A stretch of DNA of 42,883 nt from contig JAUYPW010000026.1 of the NCBI GenBank assembly GCA_030697525.1, forward strand, positions 1 to 42,883. Reading direction: 5' to 3'. The DNA is from a bacterium (lineage in GTDB: Bacteria; Patescibacteriota; Minisyncoccia; Sungbacterales; HO2-52-23). The stretch's first letter is position 1, and every line of letters begins with the position of its first letter. The notes under the pieces were generated by a model. That model saw only the letters and a program-made list of their open reading frames with translations. It had not been told where the DNA came from and did no database searches. Shown here one piece after another: positions 35,757-37,151 of this stretch. The position numbers and the translations under genes were made by a program.

Positions 35757-36218
35757 ATGGACACGCACTTTTCTCTTCCGGAGCAAATGGCTGTTGCTGA
35801 AGTTTTAAATTTAATCTCCAGGGGTTCATTAAAAATACAGAATTTTGATTTTTTCTCGAGGATTGAATCCACACCATTACAACAAATTACTGATCCGGCA
35901 GAGAAATGCGGCCAGCATGAGATGTATGATTCTAAAACCGCCTATCTTCGTACAAGCGTTAGTTTCTATTGTCGAGGGGAACAGGTGGCTGAAGTTACAA
36001 TGGAGGGGTCAGTAACTTTTAGAAGTACGGTAGGAATGATAGATGTCTGGAGAACAACCAAAGTTTCTGCCAGAGAATATTTTTGGAGGAACGATCCTGA
36101 TGAGTCTCGTACTTGGCATGAATACAAGCCGAAGTATGGATTGTATCGGGCTATTAAATCAGGAACACCAGAAGAAGAGAAGGGGTTTGAGACATTGATA
36201 AGAGAGACTCTTTCCTAG
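35757..36218 (+). CDS. Hypothetical protein (first gene of the unknown operon)
   Basis: 153 aa from ATG 35757, with RBS AAAGGAGA 7 nt upstream. The longer ORF from 35718 has no RBS. Confidence 0.5.
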   Translation: MDTHFSLPEQMAVAEVLNLISRGSLKIQNFDFFSRIESTPLQQITDPAEKCGQHEMYDSKTAYLRTSVSFYCRGEQVAEVTMEGSVTFRSTVGMIDVWRTTKVSAREYFWRNDPDESRTWHEYKPKYGLYRAIKSGTPEEEKGFETLIRETLS

Positions 36219-36235
36219 TGTAAAGGAGAATTGCG

Positions 36236-36670
36236 GTGGAAAAGGAAATGAAAGAAGAATTTGAAGGTCCGCTGGAGATTGAGAACGAAGTGGTGGTTGA
36301 AAGAGTTGTTAAAGATTTTGCGGGTGAAAACGATTTAGACTTTTTTGTGGAATGTCAGCCTACAACCATCTTTACACTGAGCCAACCCCGTGTTACTGAT
36401 TATGCAAGAGGTGTTGAGATACTGGCTTTATTAAGAAAGGGCGATAAATTATTATTTTTTGTGCCGTACTTTTATCATTATAAATATGATGTATTTGTAC
36501 TACCTCCCAACGAAAAATCTCTATTATTTCCACTGGAGGCTTTGTATAAATTGAGTCCAGACGAACAGAGAAAGATCATTATGGCCTTGCTGGAAGCGGC
36601 CTGGAAAGAAGCTAAGTTGATGAACAAAGATGATCCGGTTGAATTATTAAAAAGCAGAGAAGGGAGTTGA
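36236..36670 (+). CDS. Hypothetical acidic protein (second gene)
   Basis: 144 aa, GTG start, RBS TAAAGGAGAA. 17 nt after the upstream stop. Confidence 0.5.
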   Translation: MEKEMKEEFEGPLEIENEVVVERVVKDFAGENDLDFFVECQPTTIFTLSQPRVTDYARGVEILALLRKGDKLLFFVPYFYHYKYDVFVLPPNEKSLLFPLEALYKLSPDEQRKIIMALLEAAWKEAKLMNKDDPVELLKSREGS

Positions 36671-36671
36671 T

Positions 36672-37151
36672 ATGGAACTCGTATTCTTACGGCAATTAGT
36701 TCAGATAATGGATGAGATGGATAACATAGATATGGAAATAATCTCTGTAACTCTATGTGAAGCCGGCGAGGACGAGGAGGTTATAGGAATTGTAGAAAAT
36801 GATGATATTAAAAAGTTGTGCTTTCTTCGGGAAAAATTAAAGGAAGAAATTTTAGAAAAAGGTAGTCAAGATGCCCTAGTGTACCTTGAAGATATGAATT
36901 TTGCTTTGGAGGTTTTGACCAATTTGAGGCAAGCGGATGTGGTAGAGGCGGAGCGAAGGGTTAGGGCTCAAGTGGTCAGGAGAAACCAGTACGAATTGCG
37001 TAAATTGAGATACCAGATAGTTGAGAAGGTTTTAGCTTATGCTGTGCTGACTAAGTTTCCAGAAGTACATGACACGGAGACGATCTTTTTCAGAAAAGGC
37101 TGGAAGATAACAAAGAAACCAAGACAAGAAGAAACGTCCCTAAAACAATAA
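36672..37151 (+). CDS. Hypothetical protein (third gene), acidic N-half and basic C-half
   Basis: 159 aa. ATG 1 nt after the upstream stop. Terminator downstream. Confidence 0.5.
   Translation: MELVFLRQLVQIMDEMDNIDMEIISVTLCEAGEDEEVIGIVENDDIKKLCFLREKLKEEILEKGSQDALVYLEDMNFALEVLTNLRQADVVEAERRVRAQVVRRNQYELRKLRYQIVEKVLAYAVLTKFPEVHDTETIFFRKGWKITKKPRQEETSLKQ

Follow-up and report, generated by a model that had tools for sequence, protein, structure and literature searches.

Three kinds of described system come closest to the cassette analysed here. Type II toxin-antitoxin modules pair two small, translationally coupled genes, and either gene order is known in some of them. In polymorphic toxin-immunity cassettes, with immunity proteins such as TriTu (7zhm) and CdiI (4g6u), a large secreted toxin with a variable C-terminus is expected upstream, and the immunity protein is expected to co-vary with the adjacent toxin. 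The YbjN proteins and class I type III secretion chaperones, for example AmyR (5fr7), DR1245 (4h5b), Tll0839 (2plg), ShcF (1s28) and SycN (1xkp), have folds that bind proteins without catalysis, conserve only the core and the dimer interface, and follow the topology a1-b1-b2-b3-a2-b4-b5-a3, in which a2 forms the dimer interface (PMC5398634).

The cassette, made up of three genes that we call g1, g2 and g3, shares with type II toxin-antitoxin modules its two small translationally coupled genes, the combination of an acidic and a basic product, the independence of gene order and the accessory location. It differs from them in that no Pfam, NCBIfam, PADLOC or PDB-sequence match to a type II toxin (RelE/ParE, MazF, PIN, HipA, Fic, GNAT or zeta) was obtained for g1 or g3, no antitoxin DNA-binding domain (RHH, HTH, AbrB or Phd/YefM) was found by Pfam in any of the three proteins, the cassette is very narrowly distributed and a remote homologue of g3 is solitary. 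Unlike polymorphic toxin systems, it has no large secreted toxin with a variable C-terminus upstream and no toxin domain was detected within it, while the variable block of g2 co-varies with neither neighbour. With respect to the YbjN proteins and type III chaperones, g2 has no Pfam or sequence match to them, the window shows no evident secretion system, and where those proteins place a2 between b3 and b4 the g2 model has four consecutive strands instead.

The window, that is, the whole 42,883-nucleotide stretch of DNA that was analysed, is a piece of chromosome from the NCBI metagenome-assembled genome of a groundwater bacterium, and also encodes SecA, MurB, SecD/SecF and cell-envelope glycosyltransferases. 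All three cassette genes (locus tags Q8R29_03145-55) lie on the plus strand. Gene g1 (35757-36218) encodes an orphan protein of 153 aa from an ATG start, with a pI of 5.5. Gene g2 (36236-36670) encodes 144 aa from a GTG, with a pI of 4.8; the NCBI annotation places its start at the ATG at 36248, giving 140 aa. Gene g3 (36672-37151) encodes 159 aa divided into an acidic N-terminal half (pI 4.05) and a basic C-terminal half (pI 10.2). The spacers are 17 nt between g1 and g2 and 1 nt between g2 and g3, so that the lengths, spacing and charges given in the original prediction were all recovered in the sequence.

Selection on the three genes is purifying, with dN/dS values of 0.13-0.24 (0.24 for g1 against contig L003 and 0.13 for g3 against the closest strain), which identifies them as real genes and not chance open reading frames. 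The GC content of the cassette (0.37-0.42) is not clearly foreign in comparison with its neighbours. No paralogue of g1, g2 or g3 occurs elsewhere in the window, and profile-profile comparison found the three proteins to be mutually non-homologous. The same comparison ruled out that g1 is a diverged copy of g3, a relationship that would have explained the change of gene order described below.

Two further features of the window lie away from the cassette. An 831-aa protein (21632-24127, plus strand) combines a vault repeat (PF17795) with the shoulder domain of the Major Vault Protein (PF11978, E 2e-27); vault-protein relatives are uncommon among bacteria. In addition, a 29-nt inverted repeat (13135-13409), whose arms are 97% complementary and separated by 217 nt, reaches from the end of the MurB-like gene into the next intergenic region.

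The expression signals of the cassette are of unequal quality. Each of the three genes has a Shine-Dalgarno sequence (AAGGAG/GGGAG) 5-7 nt before its start, in line with the good ribosome-binding sites that had been claimed. The proposed promoter is also present as a sigma-70-like site, TTGACT-16-(TG)TATTAT (35665-35692, plus strand), 92 nt before the g1 ATG, which matches at 10 of 12 positions and has the top score in the region. Promoter-like sites in this region are no more frequent than in shuffled sequences (9 observed against 8.2 expected), so the match by itself proves nothing; it gains support from L003, where TTGACA-17-TATGCT stands likewise 92 nt from the g1 ATG despite the diverged DNA around it. 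We therefore regard the site as a plausible candidate promoter. Downstream lies a candidate intrinsic terminator (37157-37192, plus strand), composed of a hairpin (37157-37179) and a long T-tract, and L001 has a hairpin in the equivalent position after its cassette. The description of this terminator as strong was overstated, since the hairpin comprises 6+2 bp with a C-A mismatch and reaches a modest -8.2 kcal/mol (z = -1.2). No Rfam family was found in or around the cassette.

The DNA on either side of the cassette has features of its own. A relatively GC-rich element of about 160 nt (35468-35627) begins right after the protease stop codon, upstream of the candidate promoter, and has nested imperfect inverted termini, ATCGCTGGT...GGCAACCCAATCTGCAGACA / TGTCTGCAAATTGGATTGCC...ACCAGCGAT. 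It folds far better than its shuffles (z -6.3 on the plus strand and -8.8 on the minus strand), and is present as one copy in the window. Relatives lack it at this site, and Rfam gave no match for it; possible identities are a MITE-like insertion, a large terminator or insulator, and a small RNA. On the other side, the segment TTTGTTATAAATAACTCT (37192-37240 in the window, 6160-6200 in L001) is conserved as DNA just before the conserved SecD N-terminus, and may be the -10 region of a secD promoter and not coding sequence. If so, the secD start would be the ATG at 37234, and secD would be transcribed independently of the cassette.

The original statement that the three proteins lack recognisable domains was borne out by the collections searched: Pfam, PHROGs, PADLOC and NCBIfam returned no match for g1, g2 or g3, and nothing significant was found among PDB sequences. 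For the defence profiles of PADLOC-DB v2 this amounts to 0 families at E<=1, and for Pfam and NCBIfam the same threshold gave no match with g2 or with four of its homologues. Candidate PDB matches to Cas12a, uL23, a terpene synthase and the CBS-like 'vGIit..Di' motif of MJ0100 were at chance level (E>0.05) and were rejected. No homologue of the three proteins was found in phage and plasmid records (tblastn, E<=1), and a search of viral contigs, confined to the g3 profile, gave no match.

Across 5.8 billion protein clusters, with the window's own protein left out of the counts, g1 has one relative (86% identity), g2 has four (45-54%) and g3 has four (58-90%). When 1.84 billion representatives were searched exhaustively by HMMER, the g3 profile retrieved only 4 proteins, 2 of them remote (E ~6e-4), and species-representative genomes and JGI metagenome contigs added no further relatives. 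Genomes of this type commonly contain such orphan cassettes.

Comparison of the relatives shows that the slot delimited by the secreted trypsin-like protease gene and by secD is conserved in position and variable in content, with identities in the flanks of 75-89% for the protease and 82-86% for SecD. The window has the order g1-g2-g3. The closest strain is represented by two fragments, L003 with g1 followed by a cut g2, and L007 with g2 followed by g3. In L001, L002, L004 and L006 the homologues stand in the order g3-g2 and overlap by 17 nt, and in L008 the g2 homologue is joined through an ATGA overlap to an unrelated open reading frame, X (positions 1-420, at least 139 aa), which matches no family and represents a third kind of upstream partner. 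L001 contains in addition a double-zinc-ribbon open reading frame (4888-5124) abutting its g3 homologue. Correction of a frameshift in an A-run gives this reading frame a length of about 78 aa, the frameshift being either an assembly error or the mark of a pseudogene; the match of the reading frame to PF12773 (E 2.5e-5) is under the gathering score.

Upstream of the protease gene, the window encodes an 881-aa protein (31640-34285, plus strand) with no Pfam match, five cysteine-bearing repeats of about 147 nt (32064-32724) and GGTFQPPPSG-type repeats near its C-terminus (34016-34224). This protein is kept in the same place in L001, with 81% identity over the first 543 residues.

Taken together, six independent contigs (the window, L007, L001, L002, L004 and L006) have g2 and g3 side by side, in both orders and always between the trypsin-like protease gene and secD, and the two genes remain adjacent though g3 is 43-62% and g2 38-54% identical. 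Gene g2 is found in every arrangement in which its position is covered, while g1 is seen in just one strain besides the window. The self-contained three-gene unit originally proposed is not supported by this comparison: g1 is absent from the other relatives, which have g3-g2 or X before g2, and the remote g3 homologue of Pacebacteria stands alone. Judged by the refuting condition set in the original prediction, the linkage of g2 and g3 is conserved; the unit is a pair with a variable extra gene and not a conserved trio. The persistence of this linkage through a change of order favours a functional pairing of g2 and g3; since synteny is known only among close relatives, part of it may be inheritance. 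The idea of an accessory module is reasonable on these grounds, as the cassette is fast-evolving and lineage-restricted, has its own expression signals, is inserted between genes of housekeeping type (the protease gene and secDF) and could be assigned to no family.

Within the pair, g2 presents an unusual pattern of variation and is exchanged among strains unusually quickly. Its alleles have in common the segments MEExFEGPL, LLFFxP, PPNEKSLLFPL and LLEAAWKEA, which are invariant in otherwise 38-54% identical proteins. A hypervariable block of about 55 residues (36284-36448, plus strand; residues ~17-71) covers the first helix and the first three long strands, and its identity is 14-38% in all allele pairs; AlphaFold2 predicts the block with high confidence despite this diversity. 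L003 and L007, which come from one metagenome, fall in this range within the block and are 98% identical in the remainder of the protein. The 3' parts of their g2 genes are 96% identical and the 5' parts differ, so that the gene is an intragenic mosaic. Several short contigs end within or at g2, as expected if strain variants break the assemblies.

In comparison with the closest strain, g1 and g3 are about 90% identical in nucleotide sequence, g2 is 35-70% identical and its variable block 35-52%, and the drop has sharp edges at the gene borders. Synonymous sites are saturated in g2 (dS 1.84, compared with 0.32-0.40 in the flanks), which points to a replacement of g2 by an old allele and not merely quicker protein evolution. 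The divergence of g2 does not follow that of its partner: pairwise g2 and g3 identities are uncorrelated, with r = 0.02 for the conserved part. As for a diversity-generating retroelement, which would call for a nearby template repeat and for changes limited to adenine-templated positions, the 42.9-kb window holds no repeat of 36284-36448 and the alleles vary by indels and over the whole gene; with no template repeat and with indel differences, g2 is not a target of such an element.

To consider what g2 might do, we examined its AlphaFold2 model. Built from five sequences, the model has a pLDDT of 83.6 and a pTM of 0.78, with all five models between 80 and 84. It passes from a short strand through a helix into an antiparallel meander of four strands, and continues with another short strand, a long helix and a last helix at the C-terminus. 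The predicted fold is thus an alpha+beta sandwich, with a beta-meander sheet and the helices on one of its faces. A Foldseek search with this model in the PDB and BFVD libraries returned nothing at E<1e-3. The fold neighbours were actin-capping protein, the FP domain of Fbxo7/PI31, frataxin/CyaY, PsiB, the YbjN-like proteins 2plg, 4h5b and 5fr7, eight class I type III secretion chaperones, and the immunity proteins TriTu and CdiI. The a2 helix is missing from the g2 model, which hence departs from the YbjN and type III chaperone topology; lacking this middle helix, the dimer interface of those proteins, g2 was not placed in their family.

The AlphaFold2 model of g3 is too poor (pLDDT 49) to support a fold search. 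The motifs conserved in g3 are EEVxG..DDIKKL, RRVRAQVVRxNQxELRxLR and FRKGWK. Both remote matches share EEVxG..DD(I/L)KK(L/F) and FPE...RKGWK(V/I). One of these homologues is found in Candidatus Pacebacteria genomes, where it stands by itself with a terminator of its own and nothing resembling g2 beside it, which indicates that g3-like proteins can function alone.

These observations lead us to propose, tentatively and at rather less than even confidence, an accessory cassette with g2 and g3 as its core, in which the acidic g2 would hold or neutralise the partly basic g3 and recombination would keep the other face of g2 varied. The reality of the genes, the g2-g3 linkage in both orders, the fold class of g2 and its allele replacement are established by the analysis; the binding of g3 by g2 and the consequence of the complex are what we infer. 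Mechanistically, the lineage-restricted cassette would occupy the chromosomal slot between the secreted trypsin-like protease gene and secDF, the co-translated pair g2 and g3 would be its functional core, and g1 would be a recent strain-specific addition in a variable upstream slot. Being small (140-144 aa), acidic and always adjoining g3, g1 or X, g2 would be a non-enzymatic protein most likely acting by stoichiometric binding. It would hold or neutralise g3, and possibly also the protein encoded upstream, through a surface formed by the conserved N-terminal strand and the C-terminal half, while the variable face of about 55 residues would be reshuffled among strains by recombination.

The binding model is favoured by the six-contig adjacency, both as g2-g3 with a 1-nt spacer and as g3-g2 with a 17-nt overlap, by the confident g2 model, by the capacity of YbjN and type III chaperone folds to bind proteins without catalysis (PMC5398634), by the acidity of g2 next to the basic C-terminal half of g3, and by the invariance of the conserved g2 segments across divergent alleles. 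It is weakened by the missing middle helix, through which type III chaperones and YbjN proteins dimerise, by the uncorrelated divergences of g2 and g3, by the Pacebacteria g3 homologue with no adjoining g2, and by a synteny confined to close relatives, as the protease and SecD identities indicate.

An unlikely alternative is that the genes have no joint function, the slot between protease and secD being a hotspot of orphan gain, loss and rearrangement in which tight spacing comes from compact genomes. The content of the slot does vary, with g1, X, the zinc-ribbon gene and the window-only 160-nt hairpin element, the three proteins are mutually unrelated, and the remote g3 homologue is solitary. 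This reading is weakened by g2-g3 adjacency persisting on six contigs through an inversion of order and deep divergence, and by translational coupling of the two genes in both orders.

Distinctly improbable is a toxin-antitoxin or toxin-immunity module, in which g3, g1 or X would inhibit growth and the acidic g2 would neutralise it. Such a module would agree with the small size and tight coupling of genes that occupy an accessory slot in either order, with the pairing of an acidic g2 and a basic g3 C-terminal half, with the presence of TriTu and CdiI among the fold neighbours of g2, and with a candidate neutraliser that evolves quicker than its partner. Yet no toxin, antitoxin or defence profile of Pfam, PADLOC or NCBIfam was matched, g2 lacks a DNA-binding domain, the extremely narrow distribution is unlike that of mobile toxin-antitoxin families, and the remote g3 homologue has no g2 partner. 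Between strains, moreover, g1 is 86% and g3 91% identical, compared with 32-38% for the variable block of g2, and such independence from the neighbours would not be expected of a cognate toxin-immunity pair. The toxin-antitoxin, defence and symbiosis roles first suggested for the cassette thus found no positive evidence, there being no PADLOC, Pfam toxin or antitoxin, or phage match, and the variable block of g2 tracks the identity of neither neighbour.

A further proposal would make g2 an undescribed hypervariable recognition protein of candidate-phyla-radiation bacteria in a conflict or self-non-self module, with a conserved scaffold whose face of about 55 residues, kept diverse by allele and sub-gene recombination, would bind a fast-evolving phage protein or host-bacterium factor, with g3 as conserved output partner and interchangeable upstream cargo; in its favour are a variable block unique to each sampled allele and still predicted to be well folded, the dS of g2 above that of the flanks and the mosaic of L003 and L007, both of which indicate recombination maintaining old alleles, and the several assemblies that break at g2, as strain-level polymorphism would give. 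We consider it very doubtful, because synonymous sites are saturated in g2, no defence-system or phage-related match was found, and relaxed constraint together with recombination could yield the identical pattern.

The cassette adds three undescribed and very narrowly distributed protein families, together with a clear case of allele replacement within an otherwise conserved locus, useful for annotation and population genomics. It opens no major question, and the recombining, hypervariable g2 is the one feature worth following. The biology of ultra-small groundwater bacteria is mostly inferred from 'hypothetical proteins'; if g2 is indeed a recombining recogniser or neutraliser working with g3, these organisms would possess compact genes for strain-level conflict or partner specificity.
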